27,143 nt of DNA from Clostridiaceae bacterium (GTDB taxonomy: Bacteria > Bacillota > Clostridia > Saccharofermentanales > UBA5734): the NCBI GenBank assembly GCA_012522285.1, contig JAAYKS010000108.1, positions 1 through 27,143 on the forward strand. Reading direction: 5' to 3'. The notes beneath the pieces were generated by a model. The model ran no database searches, was not told the origin of the DNA, and saw only the letters and a program-made list of their open reading frames with translations. Shown one piece after another: positions 8,203 to 16,858 of the stretch (position 1 is the stretch's first letter; each line of letters begins with the position of its first letter). Position numbers and translations under genes: made by a program.

Positions 8203-10023
8203 TCATTCGATTCGCCAGCCCAGGTCCTCCAACCGCTTATATCGCGCGTACCAGCCCTCCTCGCGGGCGAGCGCCCGGGGTGGGCCGCTTTCCACGATCC
8301 GTCCTTTTTCCATGATATGAACGGTATCCACGTCGAGAAGTCCGGACAATCGATGACTCACCGTCAAGATGGTTTTTTTGCCACCCACCGCGCGAATGGC
8401 ATCCAATACTTTGCGCTCGGTCAGAGCGTCCAGTCCGGATGTCAGCTCGTCGAGCAGCAGTAGCAGCGGATCAGTGACCAGCGCCCGGGCCAAAGACAAC
8501 AGCTGGGTTTGTCCGAAAGAAAGATGTGCGGCGCCCTCTCCCAGAAGGGTATCCAATCCTTCTTCCAACCCGTCGACCATTTCCCGCAGCCCGACGAGCT
8601 CCAACGCTCCCAGCACCTGGTCCCGCGTGATCGCATCGTCACGCAGTGTGATGTTGTCGCGAATGCTACCGTTGAATACGACCACGGTCTGCGGCACGAT
8701 GCCGATTCTGCGCCTGCGCTCCTCCGGTGCCAGCAGATACGGATTGACACCCCCGACCCGGATGGAGCCTTCCGCCACTGGATACAGCCCGACCACAAGG
8801 TGGAGCAGTGTTGTTTTGCCCGATCCCGTGCGCCCGGCCAGCGCGGCTTTGGTACCGGTGGGAATGGTAAGGTCGGTGCCGTGTAGTACATCCGCTCCGT
8901 TCCGATAGGAGAATCGGACCCCAGTCAGCACGATGTCAGGGCGGGCACACGGTCCTACCGAGACGGAGGAGTCTGCTTCCACCGGTGCCGGGCAAGAGAG
9001 GTCGGGTGCCTCTGTTTTTTGGAGAGGCTGTTTTCCTTCCGTCTCGGTAGGAAGACGAAAATACGCGCGAATTCGCACCAGCCCGGCCATCGCCTGCTGG
9101 ATGGTCAGCAATTCACCCGCGGCGGCTTCGATCGGTTCAAACAGCCGGATCATCAGATCCGCCGAGGCTGCCAAAGCGCCTAAACTGAGTCCCAGTGCGA
9201 GTGGCGTGGCATTTTGCCCGGCACCTGCTACCAGCACCAGCGCGATCACGGCCGCGCGAACGGTCTGTAGCACACAGGGAAACCAGGCGTCGTACACACT
9301 GTTGGCGTTCATGGCGACGCGGTGCCCTTCCAGCAGCGGCTCAAATCGCTCCGCGAAGTGCCTCTCGCGGCCGAACACCTTGATCACATTCATGCCGGAG
9401 TAGATTTCCTGGATTCCGGTATTGATGTCCGATACCCGCTGGCGTACCACCTTCTGCCGCTGGTAAATCCTGCGACGGAAAAAATCGGATAGAACATAGA
9501 CAACGGGAATGGCTCCCGCAGCGATCCATCCCACCACCGGCGAGATCGCAAACAGCGCCAGCAGCAAACCACCGATCTTGAGCAAGTCCGCTGCCGCGCC
9601 GACCAACCCCGCGGTAAAGAGGCTGTTCACAGCATCGATATCCGAGGAGAATCGCGCCATGGTCTCGCCCGCCGGCGTGTTGAGATAGTGATCCATCGGC
9701 AGCAACGGTAACCGTTCCAGCATCATAGAGCGGATTCGGAGCAGGATGCGCTGGCCAAGTACCATCGCGCCGTACTCTCGTACGAGATCTGACAGCCCGA
9801 TCGCCAGCACCGCGCCCAGATAGAGAAGGGCCATCTGCCACAGACTCCCGGGCCCTCCCGTCAACGGGCCGTCGACCAACCGGCGCAACACACGGGACGG
9901 GCCGGCGACCAACACCGTCCCGGCGACCACCGCGGCCAGCATCGCGACAGTGTGCCAGGGCCTCCTGCGCACAGTTTCGGCCAAAGCGCGCCATAAAAAA
10001 CGCTCTTCCGGATTTTTACGCAT
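8203..10023 (-). CDS. ABC exporter ATP-binding/permease subunit B (fused TMD-NBD), 606 aa
   Basis: TMD, then Walker A GRTGSGKT, degenerate signature LSFGQ, Walker B LLLLDE and H-loop SHR. ATG 10023 overlaps the upstream stop and has a GGAGG RBS. Confidence 0.92.
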   Translation of the reverse strand: MRKNPEERFLWRALAETVRRRPWHTVAMLAAVVAGTVLVAGPSRVLRRLVDGPLTGGPGSLWQMALLYLGAVLAIGLSDLVREYGAMVLGQRILLRIRSMMLERLPLLPMDHYLNTPAGETMARFSSDIDAVNSLFTAGLVGAAADLLKIGGLLLALFAISPVVGWIAAGAIPVVYVLSDFFRRRIYQRQKVVRQRVSDINTGIQEIYSGMNVIKVFGRERHFAERFEPLLEGHRVAMNANSVYDAWFPCVLQTVRAAVIALVLVAGAGQNATPLALGLSLGALAASADLMIRLFEPIEAAAGELLTIQQAMAGLVRIRAYFRLPTETEGKQPLQKTEAPDLSCPAPVEADSSVSVGPCARPDIVLTGVRFSYRNGADVLHGTDLTIPTGTKAALAGRTGSGKTTLLHLVVGLYPVAEGSIRVGGVNPYLLAPEERRRRIGIVPQTVVVFNGSIRDNITLRDDAITRDQVLGALELVGLREMVDGLEEGLDTLLGEGAAHLSFGQTQLLSLARALVTDPLLLLLDELTSGLDALTERKVLDAIRAVGGKKTILTVSHRLSGLLDVDTVHIMEKGRIVESGPPRALAREEGWYARYKRLEDLGWRIE

Positions 10024-11790
10024 AGCCGCCCTCCTCCAGAAACACCTGCGCTTCGTAGATTTCCTTGTATAGCCCGGATTGGCGCACCAGTTCCTCATGT
10101 GTTCCCGATTGGACGATCCTGCCCTGTTCCAGCACCAATATCCGATCGGCTTGCCGGAACGCGGTCAACCGGTGTGTGAACAACAATATGATGCGGTCGG
10201 CAGCATCCGTCCGAAGTCCATCGACAATACGCTCCTCCGTCGCGATGTCCACCGCGGAAAAAGGATCGTCCAGCAGCAGGACGGGCGCCTGAGAGTAAAC
10301 AGCCCTCGCCATGGCAATCCGCTGCCGCTGTCCGCCGGACACCCGGACTCCTTTCTCTCCGACCGCGGTGTCCAGCCCTTGGGGAAACCGACCAAGATCT
10401 TCCAGCAGGGCGGTCGCCTCCAAAACGGTGTCCAGTCTGTCCCGGCCCTTTCCAGCCCCGGAGTCAGGTGCTTTTTGACCTTCCTCGTCGATGCCGAGCA
10501 GAATGTTGTCACGGATGCTCATGGAGAACAGGAACTGTTCGTGTCCCGCATACGCGACCAGTCGCCGTCGCTCGGAGGCGGATAACCCGGACAGTTCCCT
10601 GTCTCCCATCCGGATGCTTCCGAGATAGGGATAGAGGCCGGTCAGGCAGTGGGCCAGTTGACTTTTCCCCGATCCGACGGCACCGGTGATCCCGATGATC
10701 TCGCCGCGTTTTGCCGAAAAGGCGATGTCGTGGAGAAAATGACCGCCATCCAAACCAAACGACAAGTCCTCGACCACAAGTTCCGGGCAGTCGGGCACCG
10801 AGGACGTCTCGACTCCCTCTTCAGGCCGGCCATCCTCCATCTTTTCACGGATTCTCGTCCAGGCGGCACGTGCGCCGTGCCAACGGTTAAAACACGCGCG
10901 GCAACCCGCGTCCTGCCTGAGAACGCGATAAACATCACCAGAAACGCGTTGAACGTGCCGACGCTCCACGCGCCGTTCACAACCTCGCGCCCGCCCTGTG
11001 CCAGGACCACCACGATCCCCAAACCCGCAATCAAGGCATAGACCGGCAGCATCGCCTGCTGCAACAACATTTCCCGGATGGAAAACCGTGCCTGCCGTTC
11101 GTAGGCGTCGCGGATGCCCTCTGCCTCGTCCCGCTCCCGTCCGAACAGGCGGAGTACGGCGACGGCATCCAGATAACGCTGCAGCCCGGTGCTGGAAGCT
11201 GCGGCGGCCTTGCGCGCATTCATGGAATATCGATAGAGCACATGCCGCATGTTCTGTGCGAGAAAAATGGTCACCGGAACCATCACCGAAGCCAACAGTG
11301 TAATCCGCCAGTCCCGAATCATGAGGACCACAAAGTACGATACCATCAGCAACCACGTATCCCAGCCCTCGTTGAGCGTGGTCATCACGGTGTCGACCAC
11401 CAGTGTGATGTCCCCCACCGTTCTGGACATCAGATCGCCGACGGACTCCTTTTCCAGTTCGGGCAACGGTCGTCCGAGAACACGTTCAATCAGGGTCTGC
11501 CGCAGGTCGCAGGCAACCCGGTTGAACTGGTCCCGCATGAACCATCGTTTCACATATCGCGCGAACTGGAAGAATCCGGTCATACCGACAAAATAGGCGG
11601 CCGACAGCCATACCTGCCGCGCCGTGCCGCCGCCAGCCGCATCGAGCAGCCGCCCCATCAGGATGGGACCCAGCACAATCATGGTGTTGTACAGAATGCC
11701 CCCGATCGACGACACAATGAACTGGAACCGGTATTTCCACAGATACGCGGGCAGCGTTTCGCGTCCACGGGGCGGGCCGAATCGTTTCAT
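10016..11790 (-). pseudogene. ABC exporter subunit A (fused TMD-NBD) split by a 1-nt frameshift at about 10889-10892; 591 aa if restored
   Basis: The TMD is in the frame of ORF 10642..11838 (true ATG 11790 with AGGAG RBS). The NBD (GAVGSGKS, SGGQRQR, VLLLDD, THR) is in the frame of ORF 10016..11356. The frames join at CGT GTT TT(T) AAC CGT TGG. It could be a real lesion, a sequencing error or recoding. Confidence 0.85.
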
Positions 11791-11806
11791 CTGATTCGCT
11801 CTCCTG

Positions 11807-12148
11807 TCAGGATCTGTCGTCGTTCTGCATCTCCGCATGAGGCATACGGATTTCTTTGAACAACTCGTATGCTTTCCCGCGGGCGCGGTCGAGAACCATG
11901 CGGCCTGCTTCGGTGATCGTATAATACTTGCGCGTCTTGCCGGCGACCACCCGGTTTTCGCTTTCGATCAATCCGTCTTTCTCCTTCGCGTGCAGGATGG
12001 GATACAGGGTCCCGGCACTCATGGAGTATCCGTGTCTGCTCAGTTCTTCGATCATCCATGCGCCATAGACCGGCTCCTGACCGGCGTGATGCAAGATGTG
12101 GATACTGATAAATCCGAGGAACATACGGCGGATGACGCGACTGTCCAT
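11807..12148 (-). CDS. PadR family transcriptional regulator, 113 aa
   Basis: HILHHA...YGAWMIEEL...SAGTLYPIL...RKYYTITEAG. ATG 12148 has a GAGGGAG RBS. Confidence 0.92.
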   Translation of the reverse strand: MDSRVIRRMFLGFISIHILHHAGQEPVYGAWMIEELSRHGYSMSAGTLYPILHAKEKDGLIESENRVVAGKTRKYYTITEAGRMVLDRARGKAYELFKEIRMPHAEMQNDDRS

Positions 12149-14322: not shown

Positions 14323-15072
14323 CTATCCCGCGATCGACCAATATCCGACACACAGCAAGGCGGCCAGCACACTGGCGAGTGTCCCGACCAGATAGCGTTC
14401 CGCGAAGCTGCGGTCTGCAGCCAATCGGTTAAACCGCGCCACACTTTTAGCCGCGACGATCAACCCGATCGCACCCAGCTGGCCGACCAGCCCGAGCGTC
14501 AGAATCACCGCGCGCTCCAACATCCCGATGGCTCGCCCGGCGCGGTCAGGCGCTTCGCCGGCACCGCCTTCCGTATCCAAGTGTCCCTCTCCCACCGATT
14601 GCAGCACCTTGCGCACCAGGATCGATGCGGGCTGAAGACAAAGCAAATACAACAACAGAAGCAATACAACCTGTGCGACCGGACCTTCCCCATATGTGTT
14701 GATGAAATGTCGAAGAGGAGTTCCTTCCACCGGTCCAGCTGTCACCGCCAATCGGACGACAACGAGAATAGTTGCCACGTGAATCGCCTGATCGGCCAGA
14801 AACAAAGCCAGCCCGTCACGCTCCAGGTGATTGCGCAGTACCAGGGATTTCATGCCATCGACAAAAATATGAATCAATGAAAGGGTCAGCGCGACCGGCC
14901 AGGCTCGGCCTGGTGGCAAAGCAAAAAAAGAAACTGCCGTAACACATGCCAGGTACAATGCGGCATGCATTGCCAGTCCGGAGAAGCTGCGATGCTTTCG
15001 TTGCACCGCCATACCGGACTGCAGAAAAAAATCTCCCGCCAGGTGTGCAATGAGAAACAATTGGACGATCAC
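14323..15072 (-). CDS. DUF3307 domain multi-pass membrane protein, 249 aa
   Basis: AHLAGDFFLQS, HIFVD, FLADQAIH, GRAIGMLER, AAKSVARF and ERYLVGTLAS. GTG start 15072 with GGAGGAGG RBS overlaps the SatD stop (GTGA). Confidence 0.85.
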   Translation of the reverse strand: MIVQLFLIAHLAGDFFLQSGMAVQRKHRSFSGLAMHAALYLACVTAVSFFALPPGRAWPVALTLSLIHIFVDGMKSLVLRNHLERDGLALFLADQAIHVATILVVVRLAVTAGPVEGTPLRHFINTYGEGPVAQVVLLLLLYLLCLQPASILVRKVLQSVGEGHLDTEGGAGEAPDRAGRAIGMLERAVILTLGLVGQLGAIGLIVAAKSVARFNRLAADRSFAERYLVGTLASVLAALLCVGYWSIAG

Positions 15073-15902
15073 GTTGCATCCTCCTCCAGGAGCGTATCCA
15101 GCCACCTCAGGATCACCATTTCCTGGTCCCTTATACCGGACAGATTGCCCGCCCTCATGATATTGGCGATATTTTGCCGCGACTCTCCCGTGATGTCCGC
15201 CAGCCTCCCCGGGAGACCGCGCAAGGTTCGGAACCGCCGCAACACTCCCTGCCCGTCCGCAGGGTCATCCGTGATCCATTCTACGACAGATACTTTGTCA
15301 AAATCAAAGATGTCTCCTTTGGATTGATACAGTGGATGATCTTTCATCAGCATTTCGATGTCCGGGAAGACCGATGGGTCCATTTCGTCCTGCAGCAAAA
15401 CCGGAACCATCACTTCCGTCAGGACCAGAAGCTGCCGCTGTTTTAGAGTCAATGCCACACGCATTTCGTGTTCCCGAATCAGAAATTCGTTGGCAAAGAC
15501 ATCTGCAGCGGTATCGGTAAGCAATGCGGCTTTCCCGCCAGCCTCTTCCGCCAACCCGATCGCACGCCGGGCTCGATGGTAGGCAGTACCGTCCTGTTCC
15601 GTCGACTGTCCGCCTTCCACGCGGAGCGTCCAGTCTCCGACGCCGATTCCCATCCGCAGCGGGACCGGTGCTGTCAGGCTATCCAGCACCCGGAAATACC
15701 GATACGCCGCGGCAGGCGCGCTAAACAGACCCTGAAACTCGTCTCCGGCAGAAAAGCCGACTCGAATCAGCAGCGACGGCGCGAACAACCGGTTGAGGAA
15801 TTCCAGGCAGCGAAGGAGACGTTCCTGGAGCGCCTGCCGCTCCACCCGTTCGTATTTCCGGGATTTTTCGATGTCTACCATGAGAGCGGCGTAAGATTTC
15901 AT
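15069..15902 (-). CDS. SatD family protein (nucleotide-cyclase-like N-domain plus C-terminal HTH), 277 aa
   Basis: AALMVDIEKSR, SAGDEFQGLF, LRMGIGVG and QDGTAYHRAR, then LTLKQRQ and an HTH-like LADITGESRQNIANIMRAG. ATG 15902 has a GGGGAGGG RBS. Confidence 0.85.
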   Translation of the reverse strand: MKSYAALMVDIEKSRKYERVERQALQERLLRCLEFLNRLFAPSLLIRVGFSAGDEFQGLFSAPAAAYRYFRVLDSLTAPVPLRMGIGVGDWTLRVEGGQSTEQDGTAYHRARRAIGLAEEAGGKAALLTDTAADVFANEFLIREHEMRVALTLKQRQLLVLTEVMVPVLLQDEMDPSVFPDIEMLMKDHPLYQSKGDIFDFDKVSVVEWITDDPADGQGVLRRFRTLRGLPGRLADITGESRQNIANIMRAGNLSGIRDQEMVILRWLDTLLEEDAT

Positions 15903-15950
15903 GAGCAAGCCCTCCCCTGGGAAGAATACCACACGAGGGGCTAAAACGAC

Positions 15951-16002
15951 AACTAAATAGAGTTGCTTTTTAAAATAGCAACCTTTTTTAGTTTCATGTC
16001 AA
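15951..16002 (-). promoter_or_regulatory. 43-bp imperfect palindrome overlapping the putative satD promoter (TTGACA at 15997-16002)
   Basis: AACTAAA-N4-GTTGCT-N9-AGCAAC-N4-TTTAGTT at 15951-15993, in an AT-rich patch. Confidence 0.55.
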
Positions 16003-16141
16003 ACCGTAAGTCGTCCGAACGAATCGACGGCAAACCGGACATTGCGGCTCCAGCCCGCTTCGGTAAGCGGGGTATAATCGTCTTGCGGGACTTACGTTCC
16101 CATCCGCTACTTTCCACAAACGGATCGTGAAAGGTAAAAGT

Positions 16142-16858
16142 ATGTCCTGGGCCTGGAACCCCTGGCACGGCTGCCACAAGATCAGCCCCGGCTGCGCGCA
16201 CTGCTACGTGTACCGCCACGACGCGAGATACGAGCGGGATGCTGCCGACGTGCGCAAAAACGCGGACTTCGGGCTGCCGGTACGCCGGGATCGAAGCGGC
16301 CATTTCAAAATTCCGCCGGGCGAATTGGTCTATACCTGCTTTACGTCGGATTTTTTTCTTGAAGATGCGGATGCGTGGCGCAAAGAGGCCTGGGACATGA
16401 TCCGTATGCGCGACGATCTGTCTTTTTTTCTGATCACCAAACGGATTCACCGGTTTGCGGTGAATCTGCCCGCAGACTGGGGGGAGGGGTACCCGCATGT
16501 GTCGATCGCGACGACGGTCGAAAACCAGGACCGCGTGGATTTCCGGATGCCATTGTATCTTGTCGCGCCGATCCGGCACAAAAGCATCGTCTGCGAGCCG
16601 TTGCTTGAGAGAATCGACCTGACTCCCTATTTGTCCGACGAGATCGAACACGTGACGGTCGGCGGCGAGTCGGGAAATGAAGCACGGCTGTGCCGTTACG
16701 AGTGGGTACTGGACATCCGGGAGCAGTGCAGGCAGCGAGGCATCCCGTTCCATTTCAAGCAGACTGGAGCGTTGTTCGAAAAAGACGGCTACACCTACCG
16801 TGTCCCCCGCGAACACCAGCACAAGCAAGCTCAAAAAGCCGGGATCAATCTGCCCTAA
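16142..16858 (+). CDS. DUF5131 family (phage Gp37/Gp68-like) radical-SAM-like protein, 238 aa
   Basis: WNPWHGCHKISPGCAHCY (CX6CX2C), CFTSDFF, ITKRIHR, SIVCEPLL, VGGESG and FHFKQTG. Confidence 0.9.
   Translation: MSWAWNPWHGCHKISPGCAHCYVYRHDARYERDAADVRKNADFGLPVRRDRSGHFKIPPGELVYTCFTSDFFLEDADAWRKEAWDMIRMRDDLSFFLITKRIHRFAVNLPADWGEGYPHVSIATTVENQDRVDFRMPLYLVAPIRHKSIVCEPLLERIDLTPYLSDEIEHVTVGGESGNEARLCRYEWVLDIREQCRQRGIPFHFKQTGALFEKDGYTYRVPREHQHKQAQKAGINLP

Follow-up and report, generated by a model that had tools for sequence, protein, structure and literature searches.

Here we analyse a pair of genes in contig JAAYKS010000108.1 of a Clostridiaceae bacterium (assembly GCA_012522285.1), a stretch of 27,143 nucleotides that we refer to as the window. 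The first gene, satD, encodes a protein of the Pfam SatD family, and the second encodes a membrane protein of the DUF3307 family; the biochemical function of neither family is known. The pair is best described as an autoregulated cassette, in which translational coupling ties a regulator with a nucleotide-cyclase fold and a C-terminal helix-turn-helix (HTH) to its obligate partner in the membrane. For the fuller reading, in which this two-gene cassette also works by nucleotide signalling, we consider the case for and the case against to be of equal weight.

SatD and its cyclase-type palm domain

Both genes were found on the minus strand where the first-pass annotation of the window had placed them (Table 1), and both products score above their Pfam gathering cut-offs. 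SatD scores 48.8 bits (cut-off 29; E 8.9e-13) for PF16264 over residues 4-117, and 49.2 bits in a genome-wide search; its partner scores 59.6 bits (cut-off 23; E 3.9e-16) for PF11750 over residues 3-109. Neither protein was matched in NCBIfam and PADLOC searches. The ATG of satD agrees with the aligned N-termini of its homologues and follows a Shine-Dalgarno-like run, GGGGAGGG, at a distance of 7 nt. The GTG start of the partner is likewise in agreement with the N-termini of 53 partner proteins collected from fetched loci (alignment A3). The GTGA overlap of stop and start that had been claimed for the pair is borne out by the sequence, and in most homologous loci the two genes show overlaps or gaps of at most 11 nt. 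The assembly is a 2.5-Mb metagenome-assembled genome (MAG) in 525 contigs, and it holds one copy of each gene.

SatD contains every motif that had been read as marking a class III nucleotide cyclase, namely MVDIEKS (residues 8-14), GDEFQ (53-57), LRMGIGVG (82-89) and DGTAYHRAR (104-112). Homologues at E≤0.001 numbered 138, and in the 57 of these that were aligned (alignment A1) the invariant residues are D10, S14, R22, N37, the run S51-A-G-D54-E55, Q57, F60, R83, G85, G87, D104-G105, A111 and R112. When canonical SatD proteins of 215-230 residues and PycTM-linked SatD proteins (see below) are added to the A1 members, D10, S14, G53-D54-E55, Q57, G85, G87, G89 and D104-G105 are still invariant. 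The satD gene is also under purifying selection, with a ratio of non-synonymous to synonymous substitution rates (dN/dS) of 0.13 against its closest relative, in an Oscillospiraceae MAG (locus L003) whose SatD is 82% identical and in which the order DUF5131, satD, VanW is kept.

An AlphaFold2 (AF2) model of SatD, built with A1, has a predicted local distance difference test score (pLDDT) of 91.5 and a predicted template modelling score of 0.91. It begins with a beta-alpha-beta-beta-alpha-beta core (residues 1-130), followed by helices up to residue ~190; a stretch modelled with less confidence then leads to three helices at the C-terminus (230-276). The top 50 Foldseek matches to this model were all class III adenylyl, guanylyl or uridylyl cyclases or GGDEF domains (best E 1.7e-4, probability 1.00). 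VIA-align searches with the model gave class III cyclases, GTP cyclohydrolase III (GCH-III) and GGDEF at Z 8-9.9, with 115-140 residues aligned within residues 1-150. A second VIA ranking returned 171 chains at Z of at least 8, and the 50 listed of these 171 comprise 48 class III cyclases, one GCH-III and one GGDEF domain. The class III cyclases superpose on the palm domain of the model at Z 8.7-9.9, with a root-mean-square deviation (rmsd) of ~3 Å over 130-140 residues. Two Cas10-type Cmr2 chains were matched at Z 7.5-8.0 (rmsd 3.9-7.1), and one of them, at Z 8.0, was the sole chain other than cyclases, GGDEF and GCH-III to reach Z 8.

The structural likeness has a counterpart in sequence. 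A phmmer comparison with the class III cyclase Rv1900c (1ybt; E 0.016) pairs SAGDEFQGLF, LRMGIGVGD and DGTAYHRARRA of SatD with TAGDGFVATF, VRIGIHAGE and AGVAVHIGARV, respectively. The R-x-G-I-G strand and the G-x-A-x-H-x-A-R helix of SatD thus correspond to VRIGIH and GVAVHIGAR of Rv1900c, which along with Ma1120 of Mycobacterium avium (4wp9) and a guanylate cyclase (3et6) shares the palm fold at Z 9-9.9. D54 aligns with the GD metal motif of Rv1900c, and the two metal aspartates expected of such an enzyme are found in the SatD sequence as D10 and D54. Their spacing of 44 residues is that of Rv1900c and also separates D102 from D146, the catalytic pair of EaPycC (PMC11224242). Because of the structural matches, the Rv1900c alignment and the spacing of the invariant D10 and D54, both the class III cyclase fold and the motif assignment put forward for SatD hold.

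Unlike the class III cyclases, SatD is fused to an HTH and is not recognised by the Pfam Guanylate_cyc model (PF00211): the window protein had no match at E≤1, and the model is not among the 25 most frequent families in the 57 SatD relatives. Pfam mCpol (PF18182) also gave no match to the window SatD at E≤1, and produced weak cross-matches in 15 of the 57 relatives (best E 3.3e-4). Used as a profile against the sequences in the PDB, the SatD alignment did worse than the single sequence had done in phmmer and yielded only a spurious helical match (E 0.48), which was discarded. Among the papers searched, none tied SatD to a cyclase or discussed DUF3307 function.

The HTH proposed for the C-terminus is supported by three model helices and by a conserved operator array. 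Its motif is conserved family-wide, appearing as xAExLGIsxxxVxxRL in canonical SatD members. Pfam HTH models gave no significant match to the SatD C-terminus, and the ESM Atlas offered a lead to Sigma70_r4/HTH clusters with a score of 0.83, which is below the reliable level. From canonical SatD the window protein differs in its length of ~280 residues, in an insertion of ~50 residues before the HTH that is specific to this longer subfamily, and in a Pfam alignment that extends only to residue 117. Searched with a profile, 1.84 billion representatives yielded 2,516 SatD clusters (50% identity) at E≤0.001; the stricter limit of 1e-30 left 255. The window pair is an ordinary member of a recurrent, uncharacterised family.

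The operator array upstream of satD

When the 160 nt 5' of satD were compared in 80 loci, one to four copies of the palindrome GCAAC-N8-GTTGC were seen just before a TATAAT-like box in nearly all of them. With one mismatch tolerated, the density of sites is 4.28 per kb upstream of satD, 79 times the 0.054 per kb found in the rest of these loci, and 53 of 56 pairs of adjacent sites across loci have a spacing of 29 bp. The window holds six GCAAC-N8-GTTGC matches against 1.05 expected from shuffled sequence, two of which form the pair upstream of satD (15949-15995). Both of these palindromes lie in the 225-bp intergenic region between satD and a divergent gene for a DUF5131 (phage Gp37/Gp68-like) protein (16127-16858, plus strand), which also stands beside satD in L003. 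There the TTGC-N11-GCAA junction is kept and the bases between are variable.

The promoter-like element upstream of satD was not called by a consensus promoter scan; it was read by eye and with the help of homologous loci, in most of which a TATAAT- or TATACT-like box follows the last palindrome at the equivalent position. Judging from the sequence, SatD would evidently be a DNA-binding autoregulator of its own promoter, with binding and repression both suggested by the position and conservation of the sites. The C-terminal HTH would bind the GCAAC-N8-GTTGC array with its 29-bp spacing, and SatD most likely represses its own operon, because the last palindrome overlaps the -35 region of the promoter. 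The PycTM-SatD loci described below contain no GCAAC-N8-GTTGC sites, and the inverted repeats found at them resemble the terminator of the upstream sodA gene.

The membrane partner and its exchange

Linkage of the two genes was followed in 80 loci from reference genomes, of which 77 had room downstream of satD. The partner is encoded downstream on the same strand in 76 of these 77, and so the linkage proposed earlier proves to be nearly obligate. Most of the 76 partners directly follow or overlap satD; one is 1.3 kb away and two appear split. An even sample of 401 genomes from the phylum has SatD in 63 genomes and DUF3307 in 70, with a Pfam DUF3307 protein directly downstream at 49 of 67 SatD places and at two more by a profile built from A3.

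Two parts of the partner are conserved. Its N-terminal domain contains the motifs HLAGD (residues 10-14), HIFVD (68-72) and DQAIH (94-98), as had been reported. Among the 53 homologues H10 is invariant and D14, H68, D72, Q95 and H98 are each at least 90% conserved; the conserved pattern of this His/Asp domain as a whole is H10-x3-D14, Q18, K26, H36-x3-Y40, H68-x3-D72 and D94-Q95-x2-H98. The most conserved part is a C-terminal three-helix module (the C-module, residues 175-249), which is covered by no Pfam model and carries G179, G183, E186, R187, A208-K209, A212-R213, F223-A224-E225, G230 and S234. An AF2 model of the partner (pLDDT 92.2) is all-helical with ~8 long helices. Our reading of the positive-inside rule predicts about eight membrane helices. 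It puts the His/Asp residues within helices 1-4, in their cytoplasmic halves, and the charged LER, AKSxARF and FAEKY motifs of the C-module on the cytoplasmic side as well.

With the partner model, Foldseek against the PDB gave nothing below E 0.37, the AFDB search matched DUF3307 models alone, and the ESM Atlas search returned no usable named cluster. In VIA-align the top score was Z 8.8, and RND, NPC1, Patched or SecDF transmembrane bundles made up about 10 of the 50 rows listed, spanning the partner from residues ~86-135 to 249; these matches were set aside because they are within the noise for helical bundles. The proposal that DUF3307 is an effector or a membrane metallohydrolase thus found no solved fold to lean on.

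The two parts of the partner occur separately in relatives. Short DUF3307 proteins of ~110-150 residues, comprising the His/Asp domain only, stand alone without SatD. Conversely, three-helix proteins of 155-163 residues that comprise the C-module only are encoded directly upstream of satD, and overlapping it, in five to six lineages, and no His/Asp domain was found in the genomes with such a partner. Because these lineages keep the C-module without the His/Asp domain, the constant companion of SatD is the C-module and not the His/Asp centre. A metallohydrolase His/Asp centre as the core of the system was rejected on the same evidence. Neither the C-module as the conserved core of the partner nor autoregulation through an operator array had featured in the first-pass annotation.

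In one further lineage the gene directly upstream of satD, and translationally coupled to it, encodes a four-helix protein of 175-192 residues that belongs to Pfam PycTM (PF18967), the family of Pycsar effectors. These PycTM-SatD genes occupy a conserved site between sodA and uvrB. PF18967 was present in 9 of 9 PycTM homologue clusters, and SatD comes next in all five of those whose contexts were looked up as well as in the founding locus (L100). One clade has the triple arrangement PycTM-SatD-DUF3307, and the others have PycTM-SatD only.

SatD is also found without its partner. In L003 the partner gene has been cut to a remnant of ~33 codons (L003:3562-3663), which retains the start and the last helix, and satD is intact. 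Another partnerless satD (L101:1177-2041) is followed by a nucleotidyltransferase-like gene and a small gene that resemble an MNT/HEPN toxin-antitoxin pair, a likeness judged by eye from the N-terminal sequences only. Divergent second satD-like copies without a membrane partner occur in one family of the phylum sample (L112-L116). Their first metal Asp is replaced (…AVKLAL… versus …xxDIxxS…), and they look degenerate or repurposed.

Table 1. Positions of the satD-DUF3307 features in the window and of alternative partner genes in related loci
Feature	Position	Strand	Details and basis
satD coding sequence	15902..15069	-	277 residues plus TGA stop (15071-15069); ATG at 15902; open reading frame, translation, Pfam SatD
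DUF3307-family membrane protein gene	15072..14323	-	249 residues plus stop; GTG start 15072-15070
GTGA start/stop overlap (translational coupling)	15069..15072	-	GTG 15072-15070 over TGA 15071-15069; sequence
Shine-Dalgarno-like GGAGGAGG	15080-15087	-	8 nt upstream of the DUF3307 GTG
SatD palm domain, nucleotide-cyclase/GGDEF-type, residues 1-149	15456..15902	-	AF2, Foldseek, VIA-align, phmmer
SatD helical linker and insertion, residues 150-229	15216..15455	-	Model helices 153-165, 176-187
SatD predicted HTH, residues 230-277	15072..15215	-	Model helices 230-238, 242-252, 254-276
Partner His/Asp domain, residues 1-110	14743..15072	-	Pfam DUF3307 at residues 3-109; conservation
Partner C-terminal three-helix module, residues 175-249	14326..14550	-	Invariant columns; most conserved part
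Distal operator-like palindrome GAAACTAAAAAAGGTTGC (satD strand)	15978..15995	.	One mismatch to GCAAC-N8-GTTGC
Proximal operator-like palindrome GCAACTCTATTTAGTTGT	15949..15966	.	Exactly 29 bp from the distal site; right half overlaps the -35-like hexamer
Promoter-like element	15923..15952	-	TTGTCG 15952-15947, 18-nt spacer, TG-n-TATTCT 15931-15923; read by eye
C-module-only proteins	L102:28-495, L104:22-486, L105:2700-3188, L106:1091-1570, L107:24-515; broken in L110		No Pfam family
PycTM loci	L127:4001-6067, L128-L130; L123:4001-5230; L131, L134, L136; L100:600-1829		

Function of the cassette and competing readings

In the mechanism that we favour, the palm domain would, as a dimer and through D10 and D54, most likely convert a nucleoside triphosphate (NTP) with metal into a cyclic or other nucleotide signal. 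The membrane protein would be the receiver or effector of SatD, reached either by the nucleotide or by direct contact. The signal, or SatD itself, would then act on the membrane protein, a reading supported by the exchangeable partners of SatD, among them a known family of cyclic-nucleotide-gated effectors. The palm domain probably binds NTP with metal; that it also turns the NTP into a signal appears about as likely as that it does not. The purpose of such a cassette may lie in stress or membrane homeostasis, or in phage defence.

Several points weigh against nucleotide signalling by SatD. A cyclase fold alone does not prove cyclase chemistry, because the same scaffold serves the hydrolase GCH-III (Z 9.6-9.7) and 6yii of Pseudomonas aeruginosa, a non-catalytic ATP binder (Z 9.0, 156 residues). 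In the latter, a domain with the cyclase fold forms the N-terminal part of a DNA-binding regulator, and the match reaches the first linker helices of SatD (residues 1-189). The 6yii protein is much larger than SatD, is described as an ATP binder and not as an enzyme, and is not known to have a linked membrane partner. In the transition-state region of SatD, H109 aligns with the His of Rv1900c and R113 with its Arg, and the residues invariant in SatD are A111 and R112; the Asn and Arg positions of class III cyclases do not seem to be cleanly assignable from the alignment. No base-specifying pair (Lys/Asp in class III cyclases) could be assigned with confidence, and neither a Pfam cyclase model nor a PADLOC model matches the window SatD. 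The PDB, AFDB, VIA and Atlas searches revealed no ligand-binding or pore fold in the partner, and the case for repression comes from the position of the site. The PycTM association comes from one evolutionary lineage and one syntenic site (sodA-uvrB). Finally, L003 has lost the partner and kept SatD, which suggests that SatD may have a function of its own.

The first-pass annotation had proposed a second-messenger module of a cyclase and a membrane effector that could serve in anti-phage defence. The fold and the linkage have survived scrutiny, and PycTM upstream of satD in one lineage adds support for the pairing of a cyclase with a membrane effector; the defence part has not fared as well, as set out below. 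A bolder version of nucleotide signalling, which we offer tentatively and which is somewhat more likely to be wrong than right, would place SatD next to PycC and mCpol as a third, hitherto undescribed class of nucleotide-signal synthase built on a stand-alone palm domain. Its members would carry their own transcriptional repressor module and act through small membrane effectors that can replace one another (the C-module of long DUF3307 proteins, the C-module alone, or PycTM), and together would make up an autoregulated nucleotide-signalling system that is widespread across bacteria in defence or envelope stress. If SatD does make a nucleotide signal, it would represent a new synthase-effector pairing beside Pycsar, CBASS, type III CRISPR and Panoptes. 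Such a pairing would be unusual both for a synthase that is a sequence-specific DNA-binding autoregulator with a strict 29-bp operator array and for an effector that is a membrane protein without a known fold.

The palm domain might instead only bind nucleotide or metal, with SatD as a ligand-sensing repressor that controls a housekeeping membrane enzyme or transporter in envelope, metal or acid stress. We consider this unlikely, even though the HTH and operator array are the best-supported functional features of the system, a non-catalytic class III-like ATP binder exists in 6yii, and the partner's His/Asp residues are clustered much as in a metal site. The flanks hold ordinary metabolic and transport genes, and the family takes its name from the 'secretion and acid tolerance' genes of Streptococcus mutans (PMC11323703), both of which are consistent with such a role. 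However, both metal aspartates are strictly invariant across a deep family together with S14, E55 and Q57, which is more than sensors usually need. The His/Asp domain is moreover dispensable in the C-module-only lineages, a Pycsar-type effector serves as partner in one lineage, and the patchy distribution (63 of 401 genomes) does not look like that of a housekeeping function. Should SatD prove to be a sensor and repressor only, this would still be an unstudied pair of regulator and membrane protein, of ordinary interest.

Among known systems, the window pair comes closest to SatD/SatE-type pairs, named after the sat locus of S. mutans, with which it shares its Pfam families and the gene order of satD followed by the membrane gene; SatE of S. 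mutans is presumably a DUF3307 protein. Like Pycsar, the pair joins a class III-type cyclase fold and a small polytopic membrane protein in a unit of two genes, and PycC structures are among the fold matches of SatD (7r65 at E 4.7e-4, 8jsz at Z 7.7). The distant PycTM-SatD lineage goes further, in that it has a genuine PF18967 protein and the order of transmembrane (TM) gene then cyclase that is typical of Pycsar operons (PMC13069673). In the window, by contrast, the partner is a DUF3307 protein without a PF18967 match, and it belongs to neither the PycTM nor the PycTIR effectors. Additionally, SatD carries an HTH with an operator array and has no defence-island context. PADLOC, whose models should include Pycsar, does not recognise SatD (no family at E≤1, and hence no match to a PycC profile).

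Panoptes provides a precedent in which a minimal Cas10-like palm cyclase, mCpol, and a TM effector can form a defence system, with mCpol acting as a dimer with two bound ATP (PMC12657230). The SatD pair resembles it in setting a minimal palm domain, a putative nucleotide synthase, beside a candidate membrane effector, the counterpart of which in Panoptes is a 2TM-beta or CARF-TM protein. It differs in that the structures nearest to SatD are class III cyclases and not Cas10-type palms, and in its effector family. No 2TM-beta or CARF-TM protein was found among the PDB and AFDB matches of the partner model, although a missing match does not exclude such a relationship, and mCpol occurs in the phylum sample only in long multidomain open reading frames of 536-989 residues. 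By the tests run, the SatD pair is not Pycsar and is probably not Panoptes, and at most works like them.

This bears on abortive-infection defence, in which SatD would make a (possibly cyclic) nucleotide on infection, or constitutively in the manner of Panoptes, and the membrane protein would kill or arrest the cell through membrane damage. The cyclase fold with its conserved catalytic residues, the weak mCpol cross-matches in SatD relatives, the exchangeable small membrane partners and the accessory, patchy distribution all fit such a system, as do the PycTM-SatD operons in Pycsar order (PMC13069673) and the Panoptes precedent (PMC12657230). The genomic context, however, does not. Two genes on each side of 41 non-redundant loci gave 132 flanking proteins with 183 Pfam families, none of which occurs in more than four proteins; the commonest are Pyr_redox_2, ABC_tran and GNAT. 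PADLOC matches in these flanks were scattered, consisting of a single Csm3, a single UvrD-like helicase and some generic mad3/mad8 matches, and an enrichment in defence genes was not seen. None of the 41 loci lies inside a type I restriction locus, and PADLOC matched neither protein of the pair. The variable and mostly housekeeping flanks indicate that the ~280-residue SatD subfamily is not located in defence islands. The neighbours in the window are likewise VanW, a chromate transporter (ChrA), ABC transporters, DUF5131, DUF3360, DUF6054, an APH-type kinase and MscS, and no mobile-element genes were seen near the pair. The descriptions of Pycsar and Panoptes that were consulted also mention neither a DNA-binding domain on the cyclase nor an operator array. 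An abortive-infection system of this type is quite improbable in our estimate, and a defence role in general, which in the SatD subfamily of the window lacks contextual support, is hardly less so. As a single case among the 41 loci, a type III CRISPR Csm3/Cas7 gene lies within two genes of satD-DUF3307.

Least convincing, and in our view very doubtful, is an addiction module akin to toxin-antitoxin systems, in which an excess of the membrane protein would do harm and SatD would restrain it by repression or direct binding: this would suit the tight translational coupling and autoregulation, the loss of the membrane gene in L003 beside an intact satD with syntenic flanks, and the finding of a pangenome and Tn-seq study of Streptococcus pyogenes (PMC11323703) that satD, an accessory gene carried by 178 of 249 genomes, nonetheless scores as essential in three emm types, but polar or technical explanations of that essentiality are possible, and a simple antitoxin role does not explain the deep conservation of a catalytic-looking palm domain. 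The S. pyogenes essentiality and the loss in L003 fit a SatD that restrains a harmful partner, but are only hints. The supplements of the S. pyogenes paper contain no satD or satE entries, and no essentiality scores for the neighbours were found in them.

Elsewhere in the window, at 10016-11838 on the minus strand, an ABC_membrane open reading frame (10642-11838) and an ABC_tran open reading frame (10016-11356) lie in different frames and overlap by ~700 nt, which looks like a single ABC transporter gene that a frameshift has divided, or like an error of assembly.

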